A DNA stretch of 64,000 bases from Patescibacteria group bacterium (lineage in GTDB: Bacteria > Patescibacteriota > Patescibacteriia > UBA2591 > UBA4787): the NCBI GenBank assembly GCA_028715115.1, contig JAQUSN010000001.1, positions 67,314-131,313 on the forward strand, given 5' to 3'. Positions 5,751 through 57,775 of this stretch are shown in pieces; the stretch's first letter is position 1, and each line of letters begins with the position of its first letter. Below the pieces are notes generated by a model, which was not told where the DNA came from, searched no databases, and worked only from the letters and a program-made list of their open reading frames with translations. Made by a program: the position numbers and the translations under genes.

Positions 5751-5898
5751 AAAAATAATGATTACGAATTAATGAAATACAACATATCTTATTATAGCAG
5801 TCTTCTTTTAAAAAAACAATATTTCATTGACAAAAATTTACTTTTATATATCATATAAATACGCGTCTCTAGTGGTTGTAATAACTTAAGGAGAGCAA

Positions 5899-6258
5899 AT
5901 GGCGCGAAAAGCAACACCAACAAAACGAGTCCCGCCAATGGCCGGCTGCCAGAAGGTCAGCTTCGTCAGCAGCAGCGGTACCAACTGGGAAGACCTGTTC
6001 AAAGAAGGAGGGATGATCTTGTCCCTTCATCGCCCAGGAAGACGTGCCTCGGCCGCCCTTCGCCTGGTAAGCGTCCTCGACATCCCTCGCACTCAAGCGC
6101 CGATTATCGTAGTCCTGAGACCGGCGAACGAAACCGAGGACACGCTTATTCCCGGCTTTGTCTGGCCGGCATTTCCTTCGCAAGGATCAGACGGACCCAT
6201 CCGCATCAAGGGGTGCCTGCTCGTCCCAGACAACTACACAGACAAACTCAACCTCTAG
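5899..6258 (+). CDS. Hypothetical protein encoded in GC-rich island 1
   Basis: 119 aa ORF; AAGGAG RBS 5 nt before the ATG; TTGACA-type -35 upstream; followed by a strong intrinsic terminator. Coding GC about 57% by eye versus about 35% in the flanks. The minus-strand ORF 5869-6183 overlaps it and was judged spurious. Confidence 0.4.
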   Translation: MARKATPTKRVPPMAGCQKVSFVSSSGTNWEDLFKEGGMILSLHRPGRRASAALRLVSVLDIPRTQAPIIVVLRPANETEDTLIPGFVWPAFPSQGSDGPIRIKGCLLVPDNYTDKLNL

Positions 6259-6307
6259 GCGTACACCGATCAGACAAGGAGGACCAGTCCAGCGTGTATC
6301 CATTCTA

Positions 6308-6344
6308 GCCCGCCGCAGCTTATCTGCGGCGGGCCTTATTATTT
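6308..6344 (+). terminator. Intrinsic terminator (GCCCGCCGCAG-CTTAT-CTGCGGCGGGC + T-run)
   Basis: Perfect 11 bp GC stem, 5 nt loop, then CTTATTATTT. Confidence 0.65.
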
Positions 6345-6359
6345 AAAAAAATATCAATC

Positions 6360-6388
6360 TTGACAAATCACTAAAATTTTGCTACAAT
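6360..6388 (+). promoter_or_regulatory. Consensus sigma70-type promoter TTGACA-N17-TACAAT
   Basis: TTGACA at 6360-6365, 17 nt spacer, TACAAT at 6383-6388; AAAGGAGG RBS at 6411-6418 then GTG start at 6424. Confidence 0.65.
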
Positions 6389-6423
6389 TACAATATAAGC
6401 ACACAAACCAAAGGAGGAATGCC

Positions 6424-6888
6424 GTGAGAAAAACGCTTGTGGCCGTAAGCCTCGTCTGCCTTCTGACCGTCCCGACCTTCGGGTTCGACGTGGTCAAATT
6501 GACCATGTGCAGCGGTCAACCGGCCAACTTCAAGGCTGCCACTACCCTGTTCGGACCGCTGATGGCCAGGATCGGCATCCCGATCCCAGCCAAGCCTATG
6601 TCCATCAACTTGGGTCTTGGAGCCATGTTCCGGATCCAAATGAACCAGAACAGCGTCTTGAGTCTCAATCCGCTCATCGCTATGACGGTGAGCGATACCT
6701 CGCAGGGCCCAACGCCCTACGTACCGCTCATCTCATCAGACAACGTCTTGAGCCTCTGCCTCGGCAAGACAACCGGGCCAGAGTTCGAAACAAAGTTCGC
6801 GGCCGACTACTGCCTGACCGCAGCGCCGGGCGATCCCAAGATCGTTCCCTCCGGATATCTCTTCGGACTCCAACGACTCAACGGCTGA
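6424..6888 (+). CDS. Secreted hypothetical protein (signal peptide) in GC-rich island 1
   Basis: GTG start 5 nt after AAAGGAGG; N-terminus VRKTLVAVSLVCLLTVPTFG is a signal peptide. The six-frame ORF track opens at an upstream ATG (6379) that lies before the RBS. After the TGA at 6886 the same frame stays open for 61 further codons. Confidence 0.5.
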   Translation: MRKTLVAVSLVCLLTVPTFGFDVVKLTMCSGQPANFKAATTLFGPLMARIGIPIPAKPMSINLGLGAMFRIQMNQNSVLSLNPLIAMTVSDTSQGPTPYVPLISSDNVLSLCLGKTTGPEFETKFAADYCLTAAPGDPKIVPSGYLFGLQRLNG

Positions 6889-7096
6889 GCCGTTGGCGCA
6901 CAAGCCGACGCTAAGTACAAGAAAGGATTGACGTTGTACGCCGGACCGCGAGCCGATCGGATCATCGGCAAGTTCAGGCTCTACTTCGCCTGGGAACGGC
7001 TCATTACCGCGCCCAGCGCGCCCACGCCCCCAAGTCAATGGACATGGAAGGCGGAAGGCAAGTACAGCTTCTGAACTAAGACCTCATCTTCACAGA

Positions 7097-7126
7097 GGGC
7101 GTCGCAAGACGCCCTTTAATTTTATT
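7097..7126 (+). terminator. Intrinsic terminator (GGGCGTC-GCAA-GACGCCC + TTTAATTTTATT)
   Basis: Perfect 7 bp GC stem followed by a T-rich tract; marks the right edge of GC-rich island 1. Confidence 0.55.
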
Positions 7127-7130
7127 AAAA

Positions 7131-7160
7131 CAAAAACGGGTTATAAAAACCCGTTTTTGC
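7131..7160 (-). terminator. Bidirectional hairpin AAAAACGGGTT-ataaa-AACCCGTTTTT; terminator for groEL
   Basis: Perfect palindrome flanked by an A-run and a T-run, 18 bp downstream of the groEL stop. Confidence 0.6.
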
Positions 7161-7177
7161 AAAAATTTTAATAATCT

Positions 7178-8815: not shown

Positions 8816-8835
8816 AAATGTTAGAAGTTTACGAG

Positions 8836-9257: not shown

Positions 9258-9288
9258 GAAATAGCTTAAAAATTAATCCTTTATTATT

Positions 9289-11314: not shown

Positions 11315-11400
11315 GCCCACGTGGCGGAATTGGTATACGCGCAGGTCTCAGAAGCCTGGCCCGCAAGGGCATGTCGGTTCGACCCCGACCGTGGGCACCA
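11315..11400 (+). tRNA. tRNA-Leu (anticodon CAG), type II with long variable arm, CCA encoded
   Basis: Acceptor stem GCCCACG/CGTGGGC; D arm GCGGAATTGGTATACGC; anticodon stem-loop CAGGT-CTCAGAA-GCCTG; long variable arm GCCCGCAAGGGCAT; T arm GTCGG-TTCGACC-CCGAC; 3' ACCA. Confidence 0.85.
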
Positions 11401-12473: not shown

Positions 12474-12508
12474 AAAAACGCATATTTTCTCGACCGAGAA
12501 AATATGCG
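12474..12508. repeat. 35 bp exact repeat copy 1 (AAAAACGCATATTTTCTCGACCGAGAAAATATGCG), containing a 14 bp perfect hairpin
   Basis: Identical to 13132-13166; the two copies bracket the single gene 12564-13115. Confidence 0.8.
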
Positions 12509-12563: not shown

Positions 12564-13115
12564 ATGAAGTTATCGATAAACGAAAAAATTTTATGGACAA
12601 TTTTTAAATACCTCGAAAAAGCTGATCAAGTCACCTCTTCTAAACAATTTCTAAGCATCGCTCGACCTAAAACTGCTTTTTACAACAAAGGGTATGTCGA
12701 TTACCTATCGATAAAACATCTTACCCAAAAATCTTTACGTAAGAAAAATTTTAGCGCTCTTATCTATCGACTTAAAAGAAGTGGATTTATTAAAACTACT
12801 AAAATAAATAATGCCAAGGCTATTATCCTGACTCCGAAGGCTAAAGATAAAATCCTGCAAATCAATTTAAAACAAACCGACATGCAGTGCCGTAAAGATA
12901 AAAAATGGCAAATGGTTATCTTCGATATCCCCGAAGAATTTAGAAAAAACCGAGATCGTTTCCGATTATCTTTAAAAATAATGAGTTATCAAAAATTACA
13001 GCAAAGTATATGGATTTGTCCCTACGATGTCGCCGAAAAAACCCAACTATCTATTAAATATTTTTCTTTGGAGAATTATGTTAAGTTGCTGTTGGTTGAG
13101 GAAATAAAAATATAA
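12564..13115 (+). CDS. Hypothetical protein, N-terminal winged-helix-like region plus C-terminal Cas2-like/PaaX-C-like ferredoxin-fold segment (weak)
   Basis: 183 aa; the C-terminal KWQMVIFDIPEEFRKNRDRFRLSLKIMSYQKLQQSIWICPYD resembles the VxxYDV...RRK..K.L...G.R.Q.SV core of Cas2/PaaX_C-type domains. No cas genes or CRISPR array are nearby. Confidence 0.35.
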   Translation: MKLSINEKILWTIFKYLEKADQVTSSKQFLSIARPKTAFYNKGYVDYLSIKHLTQKSLRKKNFSALIYRLKRSGFIKTTKINNAKAIILTPKAKDKILQINLKQTDMQCRKDKKWQMVIFDIPEEFRKNRDRFRLSLKIMSYQKLQQSIWICPYDVAEKTQLSIKYFSLENYVKLLLVEEIKI

Positions 13116-13131: not shown

Positions 13132-13171
13132 AAAAACGCATATTTTCTCGACCGAGAAAATATGCGTTTTT
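13132..13171. terminator. 35 bp repeat copy 2 plus T-run: hairpin terminator
   Basis: CGCATATTTTCTCG/CGAGAAAATATGCG stem followed by TTTTTATTATT. Confidence 0.65.
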
Positions 13172-17160: not shown

Positions 17161-17549
17161 AAGTAAAAACTCTTTTGAGTACAAATCATTTATTTTGAAT
17201 AGAACAGATAATAACCAATTAAATTATTAGATGTCCTGTCAAATTAACAATCTGCACTATTTAATTAAGTTAGTCCTATCTTAATGGTTTAAACCTTCAA
17301 GGGTTAACCCGATTTGAAAGTTTAACTCGTTTTTAAGACTCGACCTTTAATAGTCCGTCCTAATTCGCTCCGTCATCCGTCATCCGTCAATTGACGGAGA
17401 CGGAGATGGGTGGCGAACGGATTAGGGCTTAACCTTAACCCAATTCAGGTAATTAAAGGAGAAATGGATTAAGATCAGAGGACTTATAATTGGTAGATTA
17501 TAAAAAATAATATATAAACCAATTGTAATCCTTAAATATTAAAATTAAA

Positions 17550-18458
17550 TTATTTTTCAAAAATGACGTCTCCGTTAAATGTGTTTTCTTTGACGATGTC
17601 TATTTTAACCTCGTCAACCGGCTTAATCAACGAGTTATTAGTATTTACGGGTTTTTCGCTGGGCTTAACCACCGGAACGGTGGGGATGATTACCGTATCT
17701 AACTGGTTGATAACCGGAGTAGAGGTAGAATTGTCGCCAGTAACCGTTGGATCGGTTGCATCAACTTGACCGGAAACAGCGCTAATCTTATCGGTAATTT
17801 CACCGGCCTTGGTTAAAGCTGTATTTAAATCTTTTTTGACCAACGAAGCCTTGGTTTCATCTAAAGATTTTTGTACATCAGACGATAAAATAAGGCCGGC
17901 CATAGTTTTGCCGTCTTGAATTGGCAAAGATCCTTGCTCAACCTGTTTAACATTGTCGTCGACTGGGCTATTGGCGTTTAATTCGTTTTTCAAGGTGCTG
18001 ATATCTGATTTAATGTTAGTGACCGCGGCCACTAAGTTCTTTTCGGCATTGCCGTCAGCGCCACCTTGGATTTGGCGTGCCAAAACTTTTACTTCTTCAA
18101 CGCGGGTAGTTATTAATTCAGCACGTAAAACATTTTTTTGGTTTTGGTTGGTGGTCATGGCTAACCTAACTTGCTCGGTCAGTCTCTTTACTGTATATAA
18201 AGGTTGTCCGGGTAAACTGTTTTTAGCGGCAAAAATTGTTGAGACGCCGGTAAAACAAACAACTCCAAGAAGCACAAAAGTGGCAATAGCTGGACGTAAA
18301 TTAAAATAAAAAACCGGACCGCTTGATTGGGCTCCCGTATTCTCGGACAAATAAGTCAACAAATGTTGCTTATTGCTATCAGCCCACAAATGGTCTGGCT
18401 TTTTATGATTTAATTTTTTTAAGCCTGTTAACAGGCTATAATTATTTGACATAGGCAC
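17550..18458 (-). CDS. Membrane-anchored coiled-coil protein, putative anti-sigma factor (ECF partner)
   Basis: 302 aa; one TM helix (residues ~55-75); the 54-residue N-terminal segment would be cytoplasmic and the long extracytoplasmic part is coiled-coil with a Pro/Thr-rich tail. Encoded 2 genes downstream of an ECF sigma in the same orientation. Confidence 0.4.
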   Translation of the reverse strand: MPMSNNYSLLTGLKKLNHKKPDHLWADSNKQHLLTYLSENTGAQSSGPVFYFNLRPAIATFVLLGVVCFTGVSTIFAAKNSLPGQPLYTVKRLTEQVRLAMTTNQNQKNVLRAELITTRVEEVKVLARQIQGGADGNAEKNLVAAVTNIKSDISTLKNELNANSPVDDNVKQVEQGSLPIQDGKTMAGLILSSDVQKSLDETKASLVKKDLNTALTKAGEITDKISAVSGQVDATDPTVTGDNSTSTPVINQLDTVIIPTVPVVKPSEKPVNTNNSLIKPVDEVKIDIVKENTFNGDVIFEK

Positions 18459-20049: not shown

Positions 20050-21636
20050 TTAGGCTAAGCTGGTACCAGTCATTTCCGGCGACTTAGGCAAACCCATTAA
20101 TTTTAAGATGGTCGGCGCCACATCGGCCAAAACGCCGCTCGGCGTTAAAGCGCTTAAATCAACGGGCTGATCCAAATGCGGCGACAACTCAAAATCATTA
20201 CCTACTATAATAAAGGGTACTGGACTGGTTGAATGTTCTTTGTTTATTTCGCCATTGCGCAAATTGACCATTTCCTCAATATTGCCATGATCAGCAGTAA
20301 TTAAGGCCACACCGCCCTGCTTTAAAACTTGCAATAAAATTTTGCCCAATTCTTCATCAACTACCTGCAGGCTTTTTTGCGCAGCCTCTAGATTGCCAGT
20401 GTGGCTGACCATATCAGCATTGGCAAAATTAACTACGACAAAATCATAGACCCCTAAATCCAAGGCCTTAATGACAGCTGCTGAAATTTCTGACGCAGCC
20501 ATGGCTGGTTTTTGATCAAAAGAAGAAATTCGCGGCGAAGGAATCAACAATCGGTCTTCTTGTTTAAACGGTTTTTCCGCGCCACCATTAAAGAAAAAAG
20601 TTACATGGGCATATTTTTGCGTTTCGGCTACATGAAGCTGCCGCCAGCCAGCATCGCTAATAATTTTTGCCAAAGGCTGCTCTACCCTTTCCGGAGGAAA
20701 GGCGACTTGAACCGGCAAGCCCGGTTCATATTCGGTCATAGTAACAAAGAATGAATCAGCTAATAATTTGGCGCGAGTAAAATTCTTAAAATTCAAAACG
20801 GTTATGGCGCGAGTAAGTTGTCGCATTCTTTCTGGTCGAAAATTAAAGAAAATTACCGCATCTTTATCGTCAATTGTGGTGATCGGCTGATTTTTTTCAT
20901 CGACAATAACCGTGGGTAAAAATTCTTCATCAAAAATTTTCTGCTCATAAGAATCTAAAACCGCCTGTATTGGATTTTGGCTTGTTTTATCAGCCTTGCC
21001 ATTGATCATAGCTTCATAGGCTTTTTGCGTTCTATCCCAATAATTATCTCTGTCCATGGCATAAAAACGGCCGCAAAGGGTGGCGATCTTACCGCAACCT
21101 AGGCGCTGGCACTTATCTTGTATTTGTTTAATAAACGACTCGCCAATATTAAAAGCCGTATCTCGACCATCTAAAATAGCATGAACAAAAACATTACTAA
21201 GATCATGACTTTTAGCTAAATCCAATAAAGCAGATAGATGTTCGAGTGAAGAGTGAACCGCGCCGTTAGAAGTTAAACCAATTAAATGTAATTTTGAATT
21301 ATTTTTTTTGACTGATTCAATAGCTTTTATAAAAGCGGAGTTTTTAAAAAACTCTCCATCGGCTATGGATCTATTTATTTTAGGTAAACTTTGCCAAACG
21401 ATTTTACCGGCGCCTAAATTTAAATGTCCGACCTCTGAGTTACCAGCTTCGCCAAAAGGCAAACCAACGGCTTCGCCAGCAGCCTGCAAGGTCCAGGCAG
21501 AATAATTGGTTAAAAGTTTTTGCCAAACCGGCAGATCAGTTAAAGTAACGGCGTTCCCCTGAGAGGGCGCAGCCACGCCCCAACCATCTAGAACAACCAG
21601 AACGACCGGCTTAATTTTAGGTTTAATTTCTTCCAT
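20050..21636 (-). CDS. gpmI: 2,3-bisphosphoglycerate-independent phosphoglycerate mutase
   Basis: 528 aa; VVLVVLDGWG, GNSEVGHLNLGAG and ADHGN motifs of iPGM. Confidence 0.9.
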   Translation of the reverse strand: MEEIKPKIKPVVLVVLDGWGVAAPSQGNAVTLTDLPVWQKLLTNYSAWTLQAAGEAVGLPFGEAGNSEVGHLNLGAGKIVWQSLPKINRSIADGEFFKNSAFIKAIESVKKNNSKLHLIGLTSNGAVHSSLEHLSALLDLAKSHDLSNVFVHAILDGRDTAFNIGESFIKQIQDKCQRLGCGKIATLCGRFYAMDRDNYWDRTQKAYEAMINGKADKTSQNPIQAVLDSYEQKIFDEEFLPTVIVDEKNQPITTIDDKDAVIFFNFRPERMRQLTRAITVLNFKNFTRAKLLADSFFVTMTEYEPGLPVQVAFPPERVEQPLAKIISDAGWRQLHVAETQKYAHVTFFFNGGAEKPFKQEDRLLIPSPRISSFDQKPAMAASEISAAVIKALDLGVYDFVVVNFANADMVSHTGNLEAAQKSLQVVDEELGKILLQVLKQGGVALITADHGNIEEMVNLRNGEINKEHSTSPVPFIIVGNDFELSPHLDQPVDLSALTPSGVLADVAPTILKLMGLPKSPEMTGTSLA

Positions 21637-21637
21637 A

Positions 21638-23236
21638 CTATTTAGTGATTAACGACTTACCCTTCATGTCCGAGGGCCGCTCAACTCCCATTAAATCTAA
21701 AATAGTTGGCGCCACGTCGGCTAAATTGCCGCCCGGTCTTAGCTCGGCCTTTTTATATTCAGAACTAACCAAAATGCAGGGCACAGGGTTGGTTGAATGT
21801 TGAGTGTCAATTTCATCAGTGGCTAAATTAATCATCTCTTCGGCATTACCATGATCGGCGGTAAGCACCAGGGAACCATTTAATTCCTTTAACTTATCAA
21901 CTATTTTAGCCAAACAGTGATCGGTAAATTCAAGGCCTTTTATGGTGGCCTCTAAATTTCCAGTATGGCCCAACATATCGGGATTAGCAAAATTAATAGC
22001 CATAAAATCAAACTCGGAAATATTTTTTAGAATATTTTTTGTTATTTCGGCCGCGCTCATTTCTGGCTTCAAGTCATAAGATTTAACCTGGGCCGAAGGA
22101 ACCATTAAACGTTGTTCTCCATTGACTGGATGATCGTAACCGCCGTTAAAAAAGAAAGTCATATGCGCGAATTTCTCGCTTTCGGCTAAATATAATTGGC
22201 GATAATTTTTTAAAACAAGAGGTAAGCTATCGGTAATTAAACGGCTGGGATAAGCTGTACGCACCAAATCAAGATCCGGACCAAAATCACTTAAAGCGAT
22301 AAAAAATATTTCCTCTGACCAGCGGCGGCGATGAAAAGAACCGGGATTTTGTTTGTTAAAATCTTTTTGCGTAAACGCTTTAGCTAATTCTCTGGCGCGG
22401 TCAGAACGCAAATTCATAAAAACAACCACATCTTTATCGCCGATGGTTGCGACCGGCTGATTATTCTTACAAATAATGCTAGGCAAAATAAATTCATCTG
22501 TCTCGCTGCGATTATAAGCTTGAACAATGGCCTCTTCGGCTGATCTGACTTTTAGCCCTTCGCCCAAAACCAATAAATTATAAACCTTTGAAATTCTGTC
22601 CCAATCTTTGTTGCGATCCATGGCGTAAAAACGACCGCAAATACTAGCGATTTTTACCTGACCACGGCCGCTTTTATTCACGCCATAATGACTATTATAT
22701 TCGTGGGTATTTCTAAGTTTATTTTCAAAACGGCGAATAATATTAATGGCTGCATGTTGGGGCGAATCTCTGCCGTCGGTAAAAAGATGAAGATAAACTT
22801 CATTAACTTTACGTTGGTCCAAAAAATTCAACATAGCCAGCCAATGTTCAGGCGAAGAATGGGCGCTTTGTTCTTCGGTAATAAGACCCATTAAATGAAT
22901 TTTTGAATGATTTTTTTTAGCGTAGTTAATGCCCTCTAAAAAAATTGGATTCTTCGAAAACGTACCATCTTTGATGCTCTCTGAAATATAAACCGCATCG
23001 GCTTTAACTATGCGACCGGCGCCTAGATTAAGGTGTCCGGCTTCGGAGTTTCCATCTTGCTTAACAGGTAAACCAACGCATTTGCCACTAGCGCATAATT
23101 CTGTGTAGGGGTATTTATTTTTTAAATCTAAAAAGGTCGGGGTCTTAGCTAAAGTAATAGCATTACCGCGCGAAGGCGGCGCCACGCCCCAACCGTCTAA
23201 AATAATAAGAAGTGTCGGACTTGTTTTTTTAGGCAT
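21638..23236 (-). CDS. gpmI: Second iPGM paralog (tandem duplicate of gpmI)
   Basis: 532 aa; LLIILDGWGVAPP, GNSEAGHLNLGAG and TADHGNAEEM. By eye about 40-45% identical to the neighbouring copy, so an old duplication. Confidence 0.85.
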   Translation of the reverse strand: MPKKTSPTLLIILDGWGVAPPSRGNAITLAKTPTFLDLKNKYPYTELCASGKCVGLPVKQDGNSEAGHLNLGAGRIVKADAVYISESIKDGTFSKNPIFLEGINYAKKNHSKIHLMGLITEEQSAHSSPEHWLAMLNFLDQRKVNEVYLHLFTDGRDSPQHAAINIIRRFENKLRNTHEYNSHYGVNKSGRGQVKIASICGRFYAMDRNKDWDRISKVYNLLVLGEGLKVRSAEEAIVQAYNRSETDEFILPSIICKNNQPVATIGDKDVVVFMNLRSDRARELAKAFTQKDFNKQNPGSFHRRRWSEEIFFIALSDFGPDLDLVRTAYPSRLITDSLPLVLKNYRQLYLAESEKFAHMTFFFNGGYDHPVNGEQRLMVPSAQVKSYDLKPEMSAAEITKNILKNISEFDFMAINFANPDMLGHTGNLEATIKGLEFTDHCLAKIVDKLKELNGSLVLTADHGNAEEMINLATDEIDTQHSTNPVPCILVSSEYKKAELRPGGNLADVAPTILDLMGVERPSDMKGKSLITK

Positions 23237-24879: not shown

Positions 24880-25020
24880 ATAAAAAATTTTTACTTATAA
24901 TAAATTAATATTTTAACAAAATTTTAAGACTTAATCAAAGAAACGGCCATCAAATTATAACATAAAATAAAATTAAATTAAAGATCTTCTACTATAATTA
25001 ATCAAAAACTAATAAAAAGT

Positions 25021-25053
25021 AAAACGGCCCCAGGTAAAACCCAGGGCCGTTTC
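25021..25053 (-). terminator. Hairpin AAACGGCCC(CAGG)...(CCCA)GGGCCGTTT downstream of the GC-rich island 2 gene
   Basis: 7-10 bp GC stem followed on the minus strand by TTTTACTTTTTATT. Confidence 0.5.
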
Positions 25054-25067
25054 TGCGATTTGGAGGC

Positions 25068-26562
25068 CTAGCGAATAAGGACGAGCCTGACTGGCGGCGA
25101 ACCATCCGAGGTTCTTGCTTCGTAAACGCCATTCGGCGCCGCGAAACCGCCATCGTCTCTTCCATCCCAGAGACGCCCTGATTCTCGTCCAGCAACATGC
25201 CTGACGCACCGGCCGGTAGAGTTATAGATTTTAACCGAGTTGACGCTGGTTAAAAACCTAAACTCCCTGCCAATCGTCGGCTTAACGACCAGCGGCTTTC
25301 CGGCATGGATTAAGGTCGAGCTTTCTTCGATGCCCATGGCTGGCACAACCAGACGAACGCCATAGCCAAGGTGATGAGCCACTTTGTGGCGCCGACCCAC
25401 GGCTATAATCGTATCTCCCCTGGCTATCCAGTCGCGAAGACAGAAACTCGGTAGGAAACTGTCTGATCCATGGAATGTCCAGAGGGTATCTTGATTCGCA
25501 TAGTCGAATGCCACAACCAGGCCGTGGCCAAAGGCGCCGCCACCCTGACCGACTGCTATTACTACGTGCCCGCTGGCCCATTTCTTCAGCCTATACAAAA
25601 CCGAAGGGTTGCCGTATGAGAAGTAGGATTTGGTCCAAAGCGTATCGCCATTTCTTAGGTCAACAGCCATAAACCAGAATCTTCCTTCATCGTAACGCGA
25701 AGTCTTTGCTACCACTAGGGCGATAGTATCATCCAGTTGCTCGACGTCGGCGGCGTCATCGGCCGAATCGGGATTGCCGTAAGTGCGACTCCATAACAGC
25801 TCCCCCGCCGTATCCAAGCGGGTAACAGATATGTCCCAAGCATGCATTTCGTTGGTGTCGGCGACAGTGCCAACAACAATAAAATCGCCATTGGTAAGAC
25901 GCCGCATGCTTCTAACGCTGTCCTTTCTGGCAAGACTATAGGTCCGACGCCAAATCGGAACAGCGTGACAGTTGATCTTCATCAACAGCAGATTGGACAT
26001 GCCGAGTTCTTTGCGGGTAACCGAATCAACCGGACGGTTCTCTCCAGCCACCATGATGTTACTATCGTTGGGCAACATGACTGCGGCTCGGACGTAGTCA
26101 TCGCTCGGGAGTACGGGTAGATGGTAGAAGAAGTTGATGCTGTCGAATCGCTCGTTAACAGCTGCCTGAACCGCGAAAAAGCCGCAGAAAGGATGGTCCC
26201 CCGAGAGGTTCACGCCAACCGCATAGAAAGTATCCCTGTGACTAAATAGCTCACAGGGATCTTCGTGGGTGTAGACGTAGGGGGGCGGAACATTATAGGC
26301 ACGCCGTCCCAATACCTCCCCCTGTGTATTCATCCGGAACAGAGCAACTGGTAGCGTCGCGGCTCCTGGCGGAGTCGGCTCCCAATCAAAAGTACCCAAC
26401 ACTATGAGCTCATTGCCCCAGGGAGCTTCATAGATCCGATAGTACAACGACCCAAGAATGCATGTATCCCGAAACTCCCCCCAGGTTGATAGGCGCTACA
26501 GCCGACGCAGTCGTGGCCAGAAAGACCACGACCAGACAGACGACCATTATCAGGTGTTTCAT
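25068..26562 (-). pseudogene. Frameshifted gene for a secreted beta-propeller-like protein with T9SS-type C-terminal sorting-domain-like tail (GC-rich island 2)
   Basis: The ATG at 26562 with an AAGGAGG RBS gives signal peptide MKHLIMVVCLVVVFLATTASAVA, and that frame stops after 44 codons. The 459-codon body is in the +1 frame with no start of its own (the track uses an internal TTG). Deleting one G from the G6 run (C6 on the plus strand, 26477-26482) fuses the two. The C-terminus VKIYNSTGRCVRHV...LWDGRDDGG...GVYEARTSDG...RLVLIR matches the Por/T9SS CTD or FlgD-Ig-like pattern. Coding GC is about 58% by eye. Confidence 0.55.
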
Positions 26563-27142
26563 TTTCTGCCTCCTTAGCAGAGTTTGTTAAAGATCTCCTC
26601 CTGATTGAGCCATAATAGGCCCATGATTCGGTTTTATCGCGTTTTAAAATAATGTCAAGCCCATTTAGAACAACTTTACCCCGTTAATCAGGAAGCTGTC
26701 ATTAAAACTAGGCATAAATTAATTTTAATATTCGAGTAGAATATTCCTTTTTAAAAAATAGGGATTAACGGGGATTACTAACTGCCTTTGTTTTGACTTT
26801 AATATATTACTTTAATGCATTAATGTTAACATTTTGACTCATATTTCTACGGCCGTTAAAATGTGAGTCAAAAAACAATTTATGCCATTTATTTACATAT
26901 ATATAAATAAGGGCCATGTTTACGACGTTATAAAAGAGAAATATAAAATTTTCTAACTGGGTAAAGGTACAATTTTCTGCTATAATAAATAGTATCAAAC
27001 GTACAATTTATAGTATATAACCTATAATATTTAATAAATATGCGTATTGGCATAGACGCTCGCCCCCGGTCACAAGCAGGGCATGTGAGGGGACGTCGCT
27101 CGTTTAAACCAATTACGTTATCATGATTAAATAATTAATAAT

Positions 27143-28495: not shown

Positions 28496-28546
28496 TAATT
28501 CTATTACTAAATATTTTAAAAAAATATTTAACTAAAACTAATTGGG

Positions 28547-28578
28547 GGCCCGCGGCAGGATACCGCGGGCCCTTTCTG
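28547..28578. terminator. Bidirectional hairpin GGGCCCGCGG-caggatac-CCGCGGGCCC between convergent genes
   Basis: Perfect 10 bp GC stem; left edge of GC-rich island 3. Confidence 0.6.
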
Positions 28579-28639
28579 ATCGAAATCGAGCTACGAACCT
28601 CCAGTCGTAGTCGAAGGGATGGTAGATGTCGTCTAGGAA

Positions 28640-30157
28640 TTAACGAACGACGATAACCTTGTGAGTCTTTTCCAGGTCAGTATCAAACAGGAAGAACACT
28701 CCCTGCTCGATCGGGTCCTGAATTCGCCGTCCATTGACGTCGAAGATGACGAACTTGTGTTGAGCGAAGACGCGCTTGAAAGACGCGAACGGGATGACGG
28801 TAGGAAGGGGCGCCTCGTGATTAAGCACATTTGCCTGCTCTTCAAGTATACTGGTTGGTAGTATGTAGATGCTGTCGACAAGGGTGTCGTTGTGTGGCGA
28901 CTGGTCGCCCGAGAGCTGAGTGACACAGCGAACGCGCACCCATCCAGTAGTGCTATCGCTACGGGACGAAAAGCTGATGAGAGCTTCGTGGTTGGGAAGT
29001 ACTTGCGAACTGGTGTCTAGATAGCGGTTGGAATCGACGTAGAGTTCAGCTGGAATGACAGTGGGGTAAATGCCGTGATTTTTGACGTTGATGTTAATGC
29101 CAAACGAGACGTTGAGATTCACAGTGTCTGGAACGACCAGCTCCAGCGGCTGAGCATCGATTGAGTCGATGATAGCTGGCCGAGGCCACAAGACAAAGAT
29201 GTCTTTAAGGTGGCCCGGATCGACAATCTGGTAATCCTCGTATCCTGGCCTGGTGTTTCGAGCTCGAATCCAGGTAGAACACTTGGCTACAGAAAGTCGG
29301 CTGTCGTTAAAGCCAGGTAGATCGCGGCCATTAACCGTATCAATCGCAGTCAACCAATAGCCGGGCGGAGTGCCGTTCGTGCTGCGATACCAGCTCGGTT
29401 CAATCCCACCGCACAGCACTGTTCCCAGATGAGTCCAAAACTCAAGCTGGTAGTTGACGTCATTCTCGCATCCTGGCGTATATGGTGCGCCGGGATACTC
29501 GTAGTCATCAGCCCAGCCTGGAGACCAGGCTGGCTGGGGTCCGGCCGCGCTTACGACTACAGTCTTATAACGGATGGCTTCCGGCGCTTTACAGCCAAAC
29601 CAGGTAGCAATGCCCTGGTGCAAACTGTCTACACCAGTACCAAAGGCGAAACAAGACCAAACGGCAACGAACTTGTAGCCAGGCACTGCACAGCACCAAG
29701 CAGCTAACATACTGTCGGTCAGGACTTCGTTGTTCCACAGAACCGTCTGCCAGAGATGCTCTGGTGGAGGGCAACCATGGCCGATAACCTGAACAACCAG
29801 GATGTCGTTGGAGTCCATCTGACTACCATAGCTGCTAAGGTGGCGCTGAATGCTTGCGAGCGTAGTCGAATCATCAATCGGCGATCGCCGATATTTCACA
29901 CTAACGCCCGAAAGGGGATTTCCCCGCTGTGGCCAAGCATTGCCCATCAGATTGACGTTAGTATCGACCTGAAACCGGCCGTCCTGGCAAGCCGAGTCAT
30001 ATCCTTTCACCTGATACCACATGCAAATGTCGTCACTCATGTTCTGAGCATTGGACGTGCAAATGGTCAGACTGAAAACCTTCTGGGAGTCCGGCGTCTG
30101 GGCAAAACCCAAGCCGAACAGCACCAGAACGAACAGAGCGGGAAAGAGCTGTTTCAT
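28640..30157 (-). CDS. Secreted protein with T9SS-type C-terminal sorting-domain-like tail (GC-rich island 3)
   Basis: 505 aa; signal peptide MKQLFPALFVLVLFGLGFAQ; Cys-rich body; C-terminus KFVIFDVNGRRIQDPIEQGVFFLFDTDLEKTHKVIVVR resembles a T9SS CTD. AAGGAG RBS 7 nt before the ATG. Coding GC about 55% by eye. Confidence 0.6.
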   Translation of the reverse strand: MKQLFPALFVLVLFGLGFAQTPDSQKVFSLTICTSNAQNMSDDICMWYQVKGYDSACQDGRFQVDTNVNLMGNAWPQRGNPLSGVSVKYRRSPIDDSTTLASIQRHLSSYGSQMDSNDILVVQVIGHGCPPPEHLWQTVLWNNEVLTDSMLAAWCCAVPGYKFVAVWSCFAFGTGVDSLHQGIATWFGCKAPEAIRYKTVVVSAAGPQPAWSPGWADDYEYPGAPYTPGCENDVNYQLEFWTHLGTVLCGGIEPSWYRSTNGTPPGYWLTAIDTVNGRDLPGFNDSRLSVAKCSTWIRARNTRPGYEDYQIVDPGHLKDIFVLWPRPAIIDSIDAQPLELVVPDTVNLNVSFGININVKNHGIYPTVIPAELYVDSNRYLDTSSQVLPNHEALISFSSRSDSTTGWVRVRCVTQLSGDQSPHNDTLVDSIYILPTSILEEQANVLNHEAPLPTVIPFASFKRVFAQHKFVIFDVNGRRIQDPIEQGVFFLFDTDLEKTHKVIVVR

Positions 30158-30226
30158 TGGATTTCTCCTTATTTCTTGGGTTTTTCTGTTTCTTTGCTTG
30201 CTCTGACACTTGTCAAAGAGCTATTT

Positions 30227-52104: not shown

Positions 52105-52114
52105 TTAACACAAA

Positions 52115-52136
52115 AGGGGCTGCGTTAGCAGCCCCT
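52115..52136 (-). terminator. Hairpin AGGGGCTGC-gtta-GCAGCCCCT downstream of the island 4 gene
   Basis: Perfect 9 bp GC stem, 22 bp 3' of the minus-strand stop at 52159. Confidence 0.55.
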
Positions 52137-52158
52137 AAGTCGTATTCATAACCACCTC

Positions 52159-52536
52159 CTATCGAACAATCTGGTAGTACGTGGTTAGCGTATCGCCCAG
52201 ACCCTTGCGCCAGAACATTATCATTACTTCGTCTCCATATTCCACGAAACAGTCGCGGCGCGCTTCTCCATAGCAGCTGAGATAGACCCAGAACTTACTG
52301 CTGTAGGTGCCGTCGTTCTCGCGGACCGAAACCTCCAACCACATGGGCTGTTGGCCCTCATTGTACACTTCGGCGCTCTGGTTGGGAACGTGCAAGTACA
52401 AATACACATCCCCAGAAAAGACCAAACCCTGCTGGTCGACGTTCCACGTTTCTACGGGGAAAAACGACTGACAGGCTGGGCCACCAAAGAGAACCAGGGC
52501 CGAAAAGAACAAGAACAGCCTCCCGGCTGTTTTCAT
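52159..52536 (-). CDS. Small secreted protein (GC-rich island 4)
   Basis: 125 aa; signal peptide MKTAGRLFLFFSALVLFGGPAC; AAAGGAG RBS 8 nt before the ATG; coding GC about 55% by eye. Confidence 0.5.
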   Translation of the reverse strand: MKTAGRLFLFFSALVLFGGPACQSFFPVETWNVDQQGLVFSGDVYLYLHVPNQSAEVYNEGQQPMWLEVSVRENDGTYSSKFWVYLSCYGEARRDCFVEYGDEVMIMFWRKGLGDTLTTYYQIVR

Positions 52537-53042
52537 GATACTCTCCTTTCGTGAAGGCTTGTTTGTCCCTCACTCTTATGCCCCTCAGCCTATGACCTAC
52601 GCTAGATAAACTAGATCAATCATAAATTGTGGCTACTTCCTGACTAGGAGGGATTGTCAGTTTCACCGCTGAGGAGCAGAAGAGTAAAGAACAATTCATT
52701 CATTCATATTAATATCATAACAGATTTTTTGACTTTTGTCAACCCCCCACCCTAAACTTTTTGGCGGGGTTAAGCCCGCACTTGAAATTTATAGGTAAGA
52801 GATCAAGAGGAAGGTGTTGCCTATAATAATTTTTTTTAATATAATAAAGGTAGTCCCTCCTCGCCCAGCTAGCTGATTCGAGGTGCTCCCGCCAGCCGTC
52901 GCCTGCCAGATGTTATAGTAAATAAAATTTAGATACGCCCTGCTAATAATAAACATTGAAAACACTTTGACTTATGGTAGGCAGGCCAAAATTCTAAGAA
53001 AAATTTTACAAATTGTGTGCTTAATTTTCTAATAATCTTAGT

Positions 53043-54731
53043 ATGAAAAAGCTTCTGCCTTACATTATAATTTTCCTGCTAGTTTTAGGATTTTTCACCT
53101 TTTTGCAGTCCGCACCGCGACTAGGCGACGGTGATTCTTTTTATCACGCCAAAATTACCGAATTAATGATTCAGGGTCGTGCACCGGTTAAAATTTTTCC
53201 TTGGCTGCCTTACACAATTTTAAACAACTTCTATTACGACCATCATTTTTTGTTTCATATCTATCTTGTTCCTTTTCTTCTACTGATTGGCCAACCGTTG
53301 GTAGCTATTAAGGTCGGGACGATAATTTTGGGCGCACTTTTTGTCACCGTGCTCTATTGGTTTTTACGCCGCTATCAAATTAAATACGCACTGCTTTATC
53401 TTATTCCAGCCATCACTTCATATGTGCTAATCGTCAGATTAAATTTAGATAAAGCACCTGGCGCTTCGCTAATTTTCTTCTTGCTGGGCATTTATTTCAT
53501 TTTACAAAGAAAAAAAATTGCCCTAGCAATTTTGTCTTTTTTGTATGTTTGGCTTTATGACGCCTGGCCGATTATTTTAATCACCACCCTGGCTTATTGC
53601 TTGGCTGTCGCCATTAAATCCGTTATCGATGATTGGCCCGCCTTAAGCAAAACTTTGGATAAAAAACTACTAAAGCAGGTTTTATTCTTTATTAAAAAAA
53701 CCTTTGTTGGTTTTTTCAGTAAATCAAATCTAGCTCTCTTGGGGTCGTGCCTGATTGGCTTGATAGCCGGTATTGTTATCAATCCATACTTCCCTAATGA
53801 TTTAAAGTTTTTCTGGGTTCATATCGTCAAAATCGGCATTTTCACACCAGGCTTAAAATACGGAGTTGGCGCTGAATGGTATCCTTACGACACCATTGCT
53901 CTGGTAAAAGAAAATATTTTAATCATGGCTCTTTGGCTATTTACAGTAGCTTGGTTCTTGGTTAGTTTTAAAAAACCAAGTAAAACCTTTCCTGAGGTAG
54001 AACCGCTTTTACCTCAACTCGGGCAAAGCAAAGAATCACTGTTTCTTGTTATTCTAAATACCTTTTTCTTTTTATACACGCTTAAGGCCAGGCGCATAGC
54101 TGAATATTTTATTCCGCTCACGGCCATCACCGCGGCTTTTGTTTTAAATAAAGCCATAAAAAATATTAACTTTAAAGAATTTTGGCAAGAAATAAAAAAC
54201 GTATTCCTTAAGCCACGATTCATTTTAATAAGCATGCTCATCGCCCTGTTGATTGTAGTCTCGCTGGGCGCCCTAATCGGATCAATCATAAAAATTCAGC
54301 AAAATACTTTTAATTATTTCCGTCAAACCGCGCCAGCTTTTGACAGATTCTCCGGCGTCACTAACTTTATGAAAAACAACACGCCGGCCCGTTCGATCGT
54401 TTTCCATAATTCCTGGGCTTCATTTCCTGAATTCTTCTATCACGACGATAATAATTATTATATCACCGGCCTCGACTCAACGTTCTTCTATGACCCTAAT
54501 CCTAGATTATATAATCTTTGGAAAGATATTACTCAGGCAAAAATTTCAAACAACTTAGCCGCAGAAATAAAAAATAACTTTAAAGCCGATTATGTTTTGG
54601 TCCAAAAAGAAGATGCTTTGTATAGAAATAACGAAACTCAAAATCTCATAAATATCATAAACGCCGATTCTCATTTTCAAAAATTATACGAAGATAAAGA
54701 AGCTATTTTTTATCAAATTAGCGGGATATGA
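53043..54731 (+). CDS. Polytopic membrane protein, GT-C-type (ArnT/PMT-like) glycosyltransferase candidate
   Basis: 562 aa; 11 or more TM helices; first extracytoplasmic loop carries GDGDSFYH, where GT-C enzymes have an acidic loop motif. Confidence 0.4.
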   Translation: MKKLLPYIIIFLLVLGFFTFLQSAPRLGDGDSFYHAKITELMIQGRAPVKIFPWLPYTILNNFYYDHHFLFHIYLVPFLLLIGQPLVAIKVGTIILGALFVTVLYWFLRRYQIKYALLYLIPAITSYVLIVRLNLDKAPGASLIFFLLGIYFILQRKKIALAILSFLYVWLYDAWPIILITTLAYCLAVAIKSVIDDWPALSKTLDKKLLKQVLFFIKKTFVGFFSKSNLALLGSCLIGLIAGIVINPYFPNDLKFFWVHIVKIGIFTPGLKYGVGAEWYPYDTIALVKENILIMALWLFTVAWFLVSFKKPSKTFPEVEPLLPQLGQSKESLFLVILNTFFFLYTLKARRIAEYFIPLTAITAAFVLNKAIKNINFKEFWQEIKNVFLKPRFILISMLIALLIVVSLGALIGSIIKIQQNTFNYFRQTAPAFDRFSGVTNFMKNNTPARSIVFHNSWASFPEFFYHDDNNYYITGLDSTFFYDPNPRLYNLWKDITQAKISNNLAAEIKNNFKADYVLVQKEDALYRNNETQNLINIINADSHFQKLYEDKEAIFYQISGI

Positions 54732-55948: not shown

Positions 55949-56642
55949 TGAAGAAAGGGCCTTGAGCGAAAACGTTAAGCGTGTTTTTGATTTCTGCCAA
56001 GATAATTTAAGTAATTATGATTGGCAAATTTTAATTGCCGACAATGGTTCAACTGACAACACGGTTTACATTTCACAGAACCTAACCAACCAACACCCCA
56101 GAATAACATATTTTCATCTAGATCAACCAGGGCGCGGCCGAGCCATGAAAAAGGCCTGGCTAGAAAATGAAGCTGATGTTTATTTATATATGGATGCTGA
56201 CCTGGCTACGGATTTAAAATATTTACCCCCGCTAATTAAAGCAATTACTGATGAAGGTTTTGATTTGGCGACCGGTTCACGATTAAAAAGAGGAGCAAAA
56301 ATTTCGCGATCTCTATTTAGAGAAATATCGTCACGAACTTATAATTTAATTTTGAGAGTTATTTTTCCGAAATATAAAATCCAGGATTCCCAGTGCGGCT
56401 TTAAAGCTATTTCTCAGCGCGTAAAAATTAAGGTTTTACCTTCAGTCAAAGATCCAATTTGGTTTTTTGACACCGAATTATTTATTCGAGCCAATGAATT
56501 GGGTTTCAAAATTAAAGAAATTCCTGTCGAGTGGCAGGACAATAAATTCGTCAAAAGAAAGACTCGAGTTAAAATTTTAAAAACCGTTACCGACGATTTA
56601 AGAGAAATTATAAAATTAAAAATAGAATTACTAAAAAAATAA
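55902..56642 (+). CDS. GT2 glycosyltransferase, polyprenyl-phosphate sugar synthase (DPM1/DPG-like)
   Basis: KKILIVLPTLNEE...ILIADNGSTDNT...YMDADL motifs. The likely start is the ATG at 55902; the track ORF begins at 55887. Confidence 0.75.
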   Translation: MITTNKKILIVLPTLNEERALSENVKRVFDFCQDNLSNYDWQILIADNGSTDNTVYISQNLTNQHPRITYFHLDQPGRGRAMKKAWLENEADVYLYMDADLATDLKYLPPLIKAITDEGFDLATGSRLKRGAKISRSLFREISSRTYNLILRVIFPKYKIQDSQCGFKAISQRVKIKVLPSVKDPIWFFDTELFIRANELGFKIKEIPVEWQDNKFVKRKTRVKILKTVTDDLREIIKLKIELLKK

Positions 56643-56805
56643 AAGTAGCTTTACGGACTTGCCCAGTTAGAACAACTTTACTAATACCCTAGTTTCGACC
56701 CATTTTGGTCGTTTTTTAAATTAATATAATATTTTAGTGAATAAACTATTTAACAATACTAGATGAGGCATTGAGGGGGAGAAACGTAAAATTTTCTAAC
56801 TGGGG

Positions 56806-56834
56806 TTGACAAAAAGACAAAAATATGATAGAAT
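56806..56834 (+). promoter_or_regulatory. Consensus promoter TTGACA-N17-TAGAAT for the island 5 lipoprotein gene
   Basis: TTGACA at 56806-56811, TAGAAT at 56829-56834; directly preceded by the 18 bp repeat TAAAATTTTCTAACTGGG. Confidence 0.6.
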
Positions 56835-56903
56835 CTTAATAAGATATGGGGCCGTACTAGGAGGTATGGCCTTCTATGTCGAAGTAGAAACAAAGGAGGT
56901 ACT

Positions 56904-57711
56904 GTGAAGTTCGTTACCACCCTACTGATCGCCATAATGGCGGTCATGTTCGTCGGCTGCGCCACCACCGGCATTACGCCGAATCCCACCGCCGGCTTCA
57001 GGTTTGAGTCGCAGGTAGTCGGTGACCCCCGAGACCGGCCTGCAGACACCAATCGCCAGCGCCGAAGTCTCTATCTCCGGCGCCAACATCCAAGACAGAG
57101 CCCTGCGGGATACGATCATAAAGAACGTCAAGGGCAAATTCGACGAGTTGGTTGACCAATGCCTTCAGTTCAACAACCTCGTCCTAACCAAGGCTGTTCT
57201 GGATATAAAAAAGCGGGATGCCGAAGACTCTATCTTAAGAGCGCAGGGCGTGATCAAGGCCAAGGTGGGCATCATCAACGGCTCTAACCAAGAGCTGTAT
57301 GTGGTGGTCCCATCTCAAGACCGAGGCGTTCGAGTCTGTCCAATACAGACTGCCAAGGTTAACAAGGTGAATGGCAACATTCTCTACCTGACACCAAATT
57401 CCAAAGTACCCCTCGTTGTTCAGAGCAAAGTCAACGGGCGCTGGAGCAAAACGTACACCACTGTCATCGACGTTCCCTACGCAGCTCCAGAAGACCGCAA
57501 GCCCTATCGTGACCTAAACAACGAAGGCTACGACCTCATCTACATCATCAACCTCGACGAGATGAAGCCCGCTTCAACCTCAATCGGAGCTGGCGCAACC
57601 GGAAGTATTGGTGGGGTAGAAAATACCCGTTGCTGCCACAACGACCCAGCCTACTGGCGAACAGCCGGATTCAATGTATATGGGTCCGGACCCGGCGATC
57701 GATTGCGGTAG
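56904..57711 (+). pseudogene. Frameshifted lipoprotein gene (GC-rich island 5)
   Basis: GTG at 56904 after AAGGAGG gives VKFVTTLLIAIMAVMFVGC (lipoprotein signal with lipobox Cys), but that frame becomes Arg-rich nonsense and stops at 57155. The 229-codon protein-like body (57022-57711) is in the +1 frame. Deleting one C from the C5 run at 57026-57030 fuses them (...ESQVVGDPETGLQTPIASAEV...). Confidence 0.55.
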
Positions 57712-57742
57712 ACAAGTGCGGTAGGCAAGAACTTCGAAACAA

Positions 57743-57775
57743 AAGGGACGCCCCTACGGGCGTCCCTTCCATTTT
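57743..57775 (+). terminator. Hairpin AAGGGACGCCC-ctac-GGGCGTCCCTT + CCATTTTACT
   Basis: Perfect 11 bp GC stem 31 bp after the stop; right edge of island 5. Confidence 0.6.

Follow-up and report, generated by a model that had tools for sequence, protein, structure and literature searches.

The question raised by the 64-kb stretch of Patescibacterial DNA considered here (64,000 nucleotides of contig JAQUSN010000001.1, assembly GCA_028715115.1, positions 67,314 to 131,313; hereafter 'the window') is how five islands with a high content of guanine plus cytosine (GC) came to lie singly among the genes of a low-GC chromosome, and how they have kept that composition. An earlier note, made from the sequence alone, had read the islands as horizontally acquired cassettes for exported proteins. 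The analysis described below resolved them into six self-contained, monocistronic units (island 1 holds two, 1a and 1b), which probably represent long-standing, fast-evolving accessory gene families of this clade, with an ultimately foreign ancestry in diderm bacteria of the type found in the Fibrobacteres-Chlorobi-Bacteroidetes (FCB) group.

The presence of sharp GC-rich islands in a low-GC genome was upheld by computation of windowed GC, of GC at third codon positions (GC3) and of relative synonymous codon usage (RSCU). The overall GC content of the window is 39.5%, and a scan in 150-nucleotide (nt) windows returned blocks above 0.50 at 5851-7157 (54%), 28529-30181 (53%), 52111-52618 (52%) and 56831-57795 (52%); island 2 (about 25020-26628), which measures 52-54% in 500-nt windows, fuses in the 150-nt scan with the GC-richer start of the enolase gene (24623-26628, mean 50%). 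Once frames had been corrected, the seven open reading frame (ORF) segments of the islands displayed a GC content of 0.53-0.60 and a GC3 of 0.58-0.75 (the coding GC of islands 2-5 being 53-54%), as against 0.31-0.46 and 0.28-0.52, with a median GC3 of 0.36, for 48 host ORFs. The two sets of GC3 values do not overlap (Mann-Whitney p = 5e-9), the RSCU of the islands is uncorrelated with that of the host (r = -0.09), and the shift in GC is seen at all three codon positions, beyond GC3. The island genes are compositionally foreign to their Patescibacterial host. The contrast described in the earlier note was therefore real, while its figures (coding GC of 55-60% against about 35%) required adjustment to 53-60% for coding segments, 52-54% for islands and 31-46% for the host; island 4 was likewise correctly located, but its GC-rich part stops near 52620, with a promoter at 52742, rather than extending to 52960. 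The assignment of the host to the Patescibacteria, or candidate phyla radiation (CPR), agrees with the protein names at NCBI ('Patescibacteria group bacterium'), and the islands have as neighbours the genes for PPDK, a DUF4870 protein, GroEL, enolase, a GT4 protein, a methyltransferase, a LamG protein, Pth, a GT2 protein and T4SS pilins.

In an AT-rich genome, ribosomal RNA (rRNA) genes or misjoins would likewise appear as GC-rich blocks of 1-1.7 kb, and the islands might in principle be artefacts or non-coding, arising from chimeric assembly, contamination or GC-rich structured RNA (rRNA fragments or large non-coding RNAs). An Rfam scan of the whole window at gathering thresholds matched no family on any island (the sole RNA gene detected being a tRNA-Leu at 11315-11400), which indicates that the islands are not RNA genes, and a further, permissive scan of 52500-53060 produced nothing relevant. 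Their long ORFs have homologues and show codon-position structure, analogous cassettes are found in relatives sequenced by other projects, and the island-host junctions are identical between independent assemblies: the proteins of islands 3 and 4 occur with identical flanks on contigs assembled separately from five runs (SRR22315505-09), island 4 also has the same flanks on the NCBI metagenome-assembled genome (MAG) GCA_028713815.1, and a region of 1,171 nt around island 5 is 100% identical in three assemblies (L004-L006, an NCBI MAG and two runs). The recurrence of the junctions of islands 3, 4 and 5 argues against chimeric assembly, and an artefactual or non-coding origin can be given almost no credence. 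Target-site duplications, inverted terminal repeats and flanking direct repeats were not found around the islands.

Each unit displays the same succession of parts (Table 1): a promoter of the form TTGAC(A/T)-N16-17-TAnnnT (identified by consensus scan), a leader of 30-180 nt, a ribosome-binding site of the form (A)AGGAG(G), a GC-rich ORF, and a GC hairpin that runs into a T-rich tail. The near-consensus sigma70 promoter and AAGGAGG-type site reported in the earlier note for each island are present in all six units. The hairpins that it described as perfect exist as well (8-15 bp, mostly as perfect stems of 8-11 bp), but terminator T2 reaches its 15 pairs only by counting G-T pairs, and the T-rich tail is weak at T3. 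Signal peptides were called from N-terminal hydropathy, basic residues and a cleavage or lipobox motif; the maximum hydropathy over 11 residues is 2.8-3.7 in products 1b, 2, 3, 4 and 5 and 0.73 in 1a, and a Sec-type signal was recognized in those five and not in 1a, the single homologue of which also lacks one. The description of the islands as encoding only exported proteins accordingly holds for 1b, 2, 3 and 4 (signal peptide) and for 5 (lipobox), but not for 1a.

The promoters belong to a recognizable module. When the window and four relatives were scanned for TTGAC-N17-19-TAnnnT followed by a Shine-Dalgarno sequence and an ORF, 14 of 18 matches preceded ORFs of at least 45% GC, and in many cases GGGG or CTTTACGGG stood ahead of the promoter. 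The window contains two copies of the palindromic core TTGACAAAAGTCAA, where 0.05 would be expected by chance, and both of them form the -35 element (islands 3 and 4); further copies are found in relatives L093/L094 and L101, whereas about 80 unrelated control loci (80 enolase loci from GTDB, reused as negative controls) have none. The sequence CTTTACGGG(N)TTGAC is found again at a NUDIX unit of L099 and in L101, while the promoter of island 3 contains a close variant, CTTTACGGGTTGAC, without the spacer base. The conservation of the PPDK promoter region beyond the cassette (in L093 as compared with L096) indicates that the inserted unit includes the promoter; the notion of captured resident host promoters did not survive this comparison, as the cassettes bring their own promoters, with a clade-specific module. 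Near the edges of some islands lie repeats of 21 and 19 nt, in two copies each, of which the former (searched by a 15-nt core) was found only in loci of this organism. Their candidacy as transposon ends or recombination sites was rejected: there are two copies of each, and they resemble duplicated or decayed promoter-upstream elements. The copies accompanied by a decayed -35 element (30361-30379 and 56661-56681) are likely remnants of promoters.

The age of the units is addressed by what occupies the same slots in related genomes. Relatives were picked by their GroEL identity (89% for L093-95 and 83% for L096-98); a scan of GTDB genomes for enolase had produced closest relatives that are only about 52% identical, too far for a comparison of empty sites, and a metagenome scan with the island 2 alignment found no relative. 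The slot between groEL and PPDK contains a low-GC DUF4870 gene and island 1 in the window, another unit in L093 and L095 (a TTGACA promoter, AAGGAGG, a membrane ORF of 96 amino acids (aa) and 50% GC, and a hairpin), and nothing in L096-98, in which the PPDK promoter comes immediately after the groEL terminator. An intact orthologue of 1b (P0150; 61% aa identity, GC3 0.67) lies on L104, an 896-nt contig from the same European Nucleotide Archive series as L095 and L097; since the 3' end of that contig is the reverse complement of a groEL 3' end, P0150 is placed in the window's slot and orientation. The slot between the GT4 gene and enolase is occupied by island 2 in the window and by a NUDIX cassette (GC3 0.51-0.56) in L099 and L101, it contains a GC-rich patch in L103, and on its own contig the island 2 homologue P0005 stands divergent from a 175-aa GT4 gene across a gap of 578 nt (580 nt in the window). 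In L099 and L101 a gene similar to island 3 and the GT4 gene are arranged tail-to-tail; the encoded proteins are 35% identical to that of island 3, and the GC3 of these island-3-like genes (0.49 and 0.63) exceeds that of their neighbours (0.37-0.46), in genomes whose enolase and GT4 proteins are 67-73% and 57-59% identical to those of the window. A further member of family 1b (P0153), from the same two samples as the relative with 89% GroEL identity and at a different locus, has a GC3 of 0.74 beside an RNase J-like gene of GC3 0.34, with the same promoter type and hairpin. Additional GC-elevated units of the same architecture include a 185-aa ORF in L096, a pilin-like gene in L093 and small ORFs of 76-80 aa.

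Several observations accompany these slots. A 179-aa protein containing only the N-terminal GT4 domain (27143-27682) marks the slot common to islands 2 and 3, and because the protein is equally short in relatives (175-181 aa, 57-59% identity) it appears to be a conserved stand-alone domain protein rather than a fresh truncation. One of the small GC-rich ORFs (76-80 aa, GC3 0.56-0.64), which is conserved, separates PPDK from cysteinyl-tRNA synthetase in L093 (14844-15074) and in L096 (11327-11569), as a cassette-like unit that is common to the two relatives and not variable. Directly downstream of a 1b-family cassette is a FabH-like (ACP_syn_III) gene (L105 793-1872, L106 2923-3456) with its own TTGACA promoter and a moderately raised GC content (0.49-0.50), from which it appears that the cassette architecture may extend to metabolic genes.

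The presence of diverged and still GC-rich copies of 1b, 2 and 3 in the same slots of relatives indicates that these are not recent independent imports. The earlier note had proposed precisely such imports, from GC-rich FCB diderms and behind host promoters, with genes now decaying and C-terminal tails that amount to useless baggage; it expected the best relatives to be found outside the clade, whereas the nearest kin of 1b, 2 and 3 belong to the same Patescibacterial clade and the same slots, which comes near the result it had named as contrary to its view. That account would explain the strong compositional contrast, the tails of the type IX secretion system (T9SS) type together with homologues on GC-rich contigs, the disruption of three of the six genes (both described below), and the empty groEL slot of L096-98. 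It sits poorly with versions of 1b, 2 and 3 that are only 35-61% identical and yet GC-rich in the slots of relatives, with a promoter that lies inside the inserted unit and is common to several cassettes and genomes, with untranslated regions (UTRs) that remain alike in the window and L011 around protein cores that differ, with tails kept in all Patescibacterial copies, and with the lack of any donor above 57% identity among 5.8 billion proteins. Recent import is judged rather unlikely; horizontal acquisition as such is favoured by the foreign composition and the distant FCB-type ancestry, and only the element of recent, separate imports was abandoned.

The history of family 3 is mosaic. Between island 3 and a 1.6-kb contig encoding P0002 (L011), nucleotide identity is about 85-95% over the 5' leader and signal peptide, about 77% over the last 60 or so codons and about 70% in the 3' UTR, and falls to about 35-55% in the core. 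P0002 and P0003 are 57% identical overall with a near-identical centre, while the island 3 protein and P0003 have another block in common, different from that centre; no UTR sequence is shared between the contig of P0003 (L010) and the window. To judge from these alignments the pattern fits recombination of alleles through conserved ends, a process that may also explain why contigs L011 and L104 break exactly at the edges of their cassettes.

Homologues were sought in collections of 5.8 billion proteins (islands 2 and 3) and, by exhaustive HMMER search, of 1.84 billion representatives (1a, 1b, 4 and 5). Island 3 has only two homologues, both about 39% identical; island 2 has one at 51% (P0005) and some 20 distant ones, which carry PF18962 and PF13860 and of which those with names belong to candidate division WOR-3, Calditrichaeota and Gemmatimonadales. 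Unit 1b has two matches (61% and 38%), 1a a single weak one (P0154, 31%), and islands 4 and 5 match only themselves and are ORFans. P0003 (family 3) and P0006 (family 2) lie on contigs of 60-61% GC from the same Joint Genome Institute sample, one of which has further genes for a FlgD_ig-tailed peptidase and a sigma-54 activator, and the RSCU of the islands correlates with that of genes on these contigs (r = 0.71-0.73). The location of these homologues on GC-rich FCB-type contigs, and the correlation of codon usage, support the view that families 2 and 3, at least, came ultimately from a foreign source of the FCB type. On L010 (926-12778), P0003 lies within about 17 mostly small ORFs on the same strand, a run that is rich in toxin-antitoxin modules (Gp49/HTH, DUF2281/PIN, HicA, PemK) and reminiscent of a chromosomal integron array.

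The tails of islands 2 and 3 point in the same direction. Searches of Pfam and NCBIfam with the six island proteins produced sub-threshold matches, to island 2 alone (FlgD_ig at 19.4 bits and CHU_C at 14.9 bits, below Pfam cut-offs of 27 bits), and TIGR04183 detected nothing at E<=1 in the tails of islands 2 and 3, P0002, P0003, P0005 or the L099 protein. The distant island 2 homologues P0006, P0008, P0011 and P0024 exceed the TIGR04183 cut-off of 23 bits (24-39 bits), and alignment of family profiles with 11 bona fide C-terminal sorting domains using hhalign gave a probability of 98.2% (E = 4e-14) for the island 2 family tail and of 94.6% (E = 7e-8) for that of island 3, which lacks about 22 residues between its two conserved motifs. 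Those motifs ('YD..GR.V' and 'G.Y...K..V.R') are visible in both islands, while 'PNPF' is degenerate. On this evidence the tails are divergent homologues of the T9SS type-A/FlgD-Ig domain, as the earlier note had proposed by eye, although they do not reach the thresholds of curated models. They are kept in five of five known members of family 3 and in every Patescibacterial copy, which argues against the simple uselessness that the note had assigned to them in such a host. No T9SS component (PorK/L/M/N, SprA, PorU/V) occurs among about 25 annotated host genes of the window, on a contig of at least 479 kb, and Patescibacteria are not known to possess either an outer membrane or a T9SS.

Predictions for the remaining parts of the products are more tentative. 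The island 2 product appears to combine a beta-propeller-like body with its sorting-type tail. The island 3 protein contains conserved GHG...SC(W/F) motifs, which may resemble a His/Cys protease dyad; an AlphaFold2 model built from three sequences was unusable (pLDDT 30). For family 1b an AlphaFold2 model of low confidence (pLDDT 47) gave fold matches to a 12-stranded, KdgM/NanC-like porin barrel; support at the level of sequence was looked for and not found, and the model is a hint that the 1b product is possibly such a barrel. Overall the cargo resembles the envelope proteins found in diderm bacteria.

An opposite derivation would make the islands native, fast-evolving genes for surface proteins, the GC content of which was raised in place, for example by GC-biased gene conversion at recombination hot spots or by selection on mRNA; the FCB-type homologues would then have come from Patescibacteria, or would have only the tail domain in common with the island proteins. 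The persistence of GC-rich cassettes across several diverged relatives, the mosaic and recombining character of family 3, the atypical composition of P0003 on its own contig and its nesting near the L011 allele, and the lack of outside homologues for islands 4 and 5 would all be in keeping with such a history. It is made improbable by the shift in GC at all three codon positions, by an island 2 family that consists of many TIGR04183-positive, FCB-type members and two Patescibacterial ones, by T9SS-type tails and a possible outer-membrane barrel that are hallmarks of a diderm envelope, and by the correlation of codon usage with GC-rich contigs.

Three of the six genes are disrupted (1b and those of islands 2 and 5), each by a single lesion, which indicates that the inactivations are recent and bears out the suggestion that some cassettes are decaying. 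In 1b, a TGA at 6886-6888 aligns with a tryptophan of the intact, 222-aa P0150 (a TGG>TGA change), and the frame runs on to 7074; reassignment of TGA was ruled out by its use as a stop in 6 of 48 host genes. Island 2 contains a +1 frameshift in a run of six G (C6 on the plus strand; 26477-26482) immediately after the signal peptide, and the frame-repaired protein aligns perfectly with the intact P0005 through the junction. Island 5 contains a +1 frame change in a run of five C (57026-57030) immediately after the lipobox, a lesion that is the same in all three assemblies covering the region (L004-L006) and is the only one to have been cross-checked.

The position of the last two lesions raises the possibility that the genes are phase-variable contingency loci, toggled by slippage in G/C homopolymers just past the signal peptide. 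In islands 2 (G6) and 5 (C5) a homopolymer that follows the signal sets the reading frame, as in known contingency loci, each broken gene has one lesion only, and a third GC-rich cassette, in the relative L093, also shifts frame at a G6 run near position 17880. That cassette (17548-18230, the same in L094) encodes a type IV pilin-like protein with an N_methyl motif, contains runs of G8, G6 and G5, and has a promoter core almost identical to that of island 4. The tracts are nevertheless short for efficient slippage, the lesion of 1b is a point nonsense change, and no variation in tract length was seen at island 5 among the three assemblies (an NCBI MAG and two runs) or between L093 and L094, which come from different samples. 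The description of the cassettes as switchable is thus unsupported for island 5, and phase variation, while possible, is an unsupported and decidedly improbable explanation of the sequences in hand.

The preferred history, of long-resident accessory families with foreign roots, would proceed as follows. Complete units (promoter, leader, Shine-Dalgarno sequence, GC-rich ORF and intrinsic terminator) would lodge between housekeeping genes, with the shared promoter module arriving together with the cassette and presumably driving its expression. They would form small gene families that circulate inside the Patescibacterial clade, such that a given slot comes to hold a diverged version, another cassette or nothing. 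The ORFs would be of diderm, FCB-type origin, as suggested by the two T9SS-type tails, the one possible porin-like barrel and a codon usage that resembles the one seen on the GC-rich contigs. With their Sec-type signals, all products but that of 1a would be exported, either secreted or displayed on the surface, and their likeliest site of action would be the contact with a host cell. Turnover would be fast, half of the genes being inactivated by a single recent lesion each, and GC-richness would be upheld by recurrent recombination with an external, GC-rich pool of alleles, by GC-biased gene conversion or by selection.

Several considerations weigh against this history. Long residence, at the distance implied by enolase identities of 67-73%, should have ameliorated a GC3 of 0.6-0.75, such that an extra and unproven process is needed to sustain it. 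Half of the genes are broken, and several may have no current function. The window's own tails fall under the Pfam and TIGR04183 thresholds, a high-identity donor was found for none of the islands, and for islands 4 and 5, which lack homologues, a foreign origin rests on composition only. Finally, the GC3 of P0003 (0.64) is below that of its L010 neighbours (0.71-0.82) and the protein is nearer to the L011 allele than that of the window is, leaving the direction of transfer in family 3 ambiguous.

A more specific extension is conceivable, in which the clade keeps a dedicated pool of mobile expression cassettes that share the promoter module and insert just downstream of terminators at recurrent slots, in which diderm-type cargo (T9SS-tailed proteins, a porin-like barrel and a lipoprotein) is retained because it acts on, or inserts into, the outer envelope of a diderm host by way of that host's sorting signals, and in which GC content is sustained by continued recombination with host-derived DNA that the symbiont takes up; in this full form it is unlikely.

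Table 1. Positions and properties of the parts of the six units and of associated elements in the window
Feature	Position	Strand	Details
Unit 1a promoter	5827..5854	+	TTGACA-16-TATCAT; consensus scan
Unit 1a coding sequence	5899..6258	+	119 aa; GC 0.58; GC3 0.65; without signal peptide
Unit 1a terminator	6308..6334	+	11-bp GC stem and T-rich tail
Unit 1b promoter	6360..6388	+	TTGACA-17-TACAAT with TG extension
Unit 1b coding sequence	6424..7074	+	signal peptide; GC3 0.73-0.75; premature TGA at 6886-6888
Unit 1b terminator	7094..7117	+	about 20 nt from groEL terminator hairpin
Island 2 terminator	25021..25053	-	hairpin
Island 2 coding sequence	25068..26562	-	ATG at 26562; signal peptide; frameshifted, then 459-codon ORF to 25068
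Island 2 promoter	26631-26658	-	TTGACA-16-TAAAAC
21-nt element	26659-26679	-	GTAAAGTTGTTCTAAATGGGC; upstream of island 2 promoter
Island 3 terminator	28546..28572	-	10-bp perfect GC stem
Island 3 coding sequence	28640..30157	-	505 aa; intact; signal peptide; shortened T9SS-type tail; GC3 0.60
Island 3 promoter	30230-30258	-	TTGACTTTTGTCAA core
19-mer	30260-30278	-	GCAAAAGTTAGCTTTACGG; upstream of island 3 promoter
19-mer, second copy	30361-30379		GCAAAAGTTAGCTTTACGG; decayed -35
Island 4 terminator	52115..52136	-	hairpin
Island 4 coding sequence	52159..52536	-	125 aa; signal peptide; GC3 0.69; ORFan
Island 4 leader	52537..52713	-	folded over 179 nt (52537-52715); -61.6 kcal/mol, z = -4.8
Island 4 promoter	52714..52742	-	GGGGGG-TTGACAAAAGTCAA...TATGAT
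21-nt element, second copy	56661..56681	-	followed by decayed -35; beside island 5
Island 5 promoter	56806..56834	+	GGGG-TTGACA-17-TAGAAT
Island 5 coding sequence	56904..57711	+	GTG start; lipobox-type FVGC; frameshifted, then 229-codon ORF
Island 5 terminator	57745..57766	+	hairpin

Some additional features of the window deserve mention beside these units. The leader of island 4 folds as a long and very stable hairpin (z against shuffled sequences), without an Rfam match, and from this predicted structure may be regulatory or stabilising. Farther upstream, a GC-rich patch of about 60 nt (52850-52920) lies in the AT-rich spacer that precedes a 562-aa gene at 53043; Rfam returned nothing above noise for it, and a 55-aa ORF was called in the spacer in one assembly (L006 5000-5167). 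Adjoining island 5, four small consecutive genes on the minus strand (57806-59862) match T4SS_pilin/TrbC (VirB2-like), two of them being recent paralogues by virtue of a 193-nt repeat of 81% identity (57861-58053 and 58317-58509). Elsewhere, identical palindromic hairpins of 35-40 nt (AAAAACGCATATTTTCTCGACCGAGAAAATATGCG) at 12474-12508 and 13132-13171 flank a 183-aa gene (12564-13115; GC 31%, with a homologue in L101 that is 56% identical), and could be bidirectional terminators or the ends of another type of small mobile unit. A cofactor-independent phosphoglycerate mutase gene (20050-21636, by Pfam) is followed in tandem by a paralogue (21638-23236, by sequence); the pair displays about 43% protein identity, with about 72-76% in aligned DNA repeats, and is kept in L099, L101 and L103.

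Among previously described systems the closest likeness is to phage morons, reportedly recognized about 2000 by Hendrix, Juhala and colleagues as autonomous extra genes in lambdoid prophages. Like the cassettes, morons consist of a single gene or pair of genes of deviant composition, with its own sigma-70 promoter and factor-independent terminator, lodged between resident genes, and they frequently encode surface or secreted proteins and vary among relatives. Unlike morons, the cassettes have chromosomal housekeeping genes as neighbours (groEL, PPDK, enolase and pth, with no phage genes seen nearby), have in common a promoter module specific to the clade and turn up repeatedly at the same slots of diverged genomes. 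Comparable cargo is found among type-A substrates of the T9SS (TIGR04183 or PF18962, and FlgD_ig PF13860), which, like the products of islands 2 and 3, combine a Sec signal, a functional body and a C-terminal tail of the beta-sandwich type; in the window the tails differ in falling below curated thresholds, in being about 22 residues shorter (island 3) and in their degenerate 'PNPF'. Full-text searches produced no paper on T9SS-type tails in CPR proteins, although these keyword checks were limited and do not establish an absence from the literature.

Variable surface lipoproteins are also encoded by the vsp and vlp families of Mycoplasma, a small-genome, host-dependent bacterium, with a conserved 5' UTR and signal peptide, a variable mature region and on/off states linked to homopolymers; the cassettes share this plan but are scattered singly and compositionally foreign, lack tandem repeats and invertible elements, and have not been demonstrated to switch. 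Integron cassettes are likewise small, mobile, single-ORF units that end in a hairpin, vary among relatives and recur at given positions; the present cassettes differ in that each has its own promoter, in their scattered location, and in the possession of GC terminator stems of 8-15 bp with T tails in place of attC sites (as judged by inspection, without a formal model), and neither an array nor an integrase was found among the annotated neighbours. Nor do the islands resemble classical genomic islands, as the only tRNA gene lies far from them and flanking repeats were not found.

As reported in PMC12455944, Patescibacteria gain genes mostly from other Patescibacteria, and also from Bacteroidota and Omnitrophota, with horizontally transferred genes accounting for up to 13% of genome length. 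Horizontal transfer into Patescibacteria in general has thus already been published there, and the cassettes can be placed within it as moron-like units; to judge from a keyword check, that source does not appear to deal with GC-rich units of one gene that bring a promoter and terminator along.

For the biology of the clade these units would have several consequences. The sequences supply concrete candidates for proteins of the interface between cells, in a group of organisms that are thought to live attached to other microbes and whose hosts and contact molecules are mostly unidentified. The combination of a GGGG/CTTTACGGG-TTGACA...TAnAAT promoter, a GC-rich ORF and a hairpin offers a signature with which the clade can be searched, and the diderm-type sorting tails hint at the kind of organism that served as donor, and possibly at the kind that serves as host. 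Finally, the apparently long persistence of genes with a GC3 of 0.6-0.75 in genomes with a GC3 of about 0.36 constitutes a clean natural test case, which could separate amelioration from recurrent import of alleles, GC-biased gene conversion and selection.

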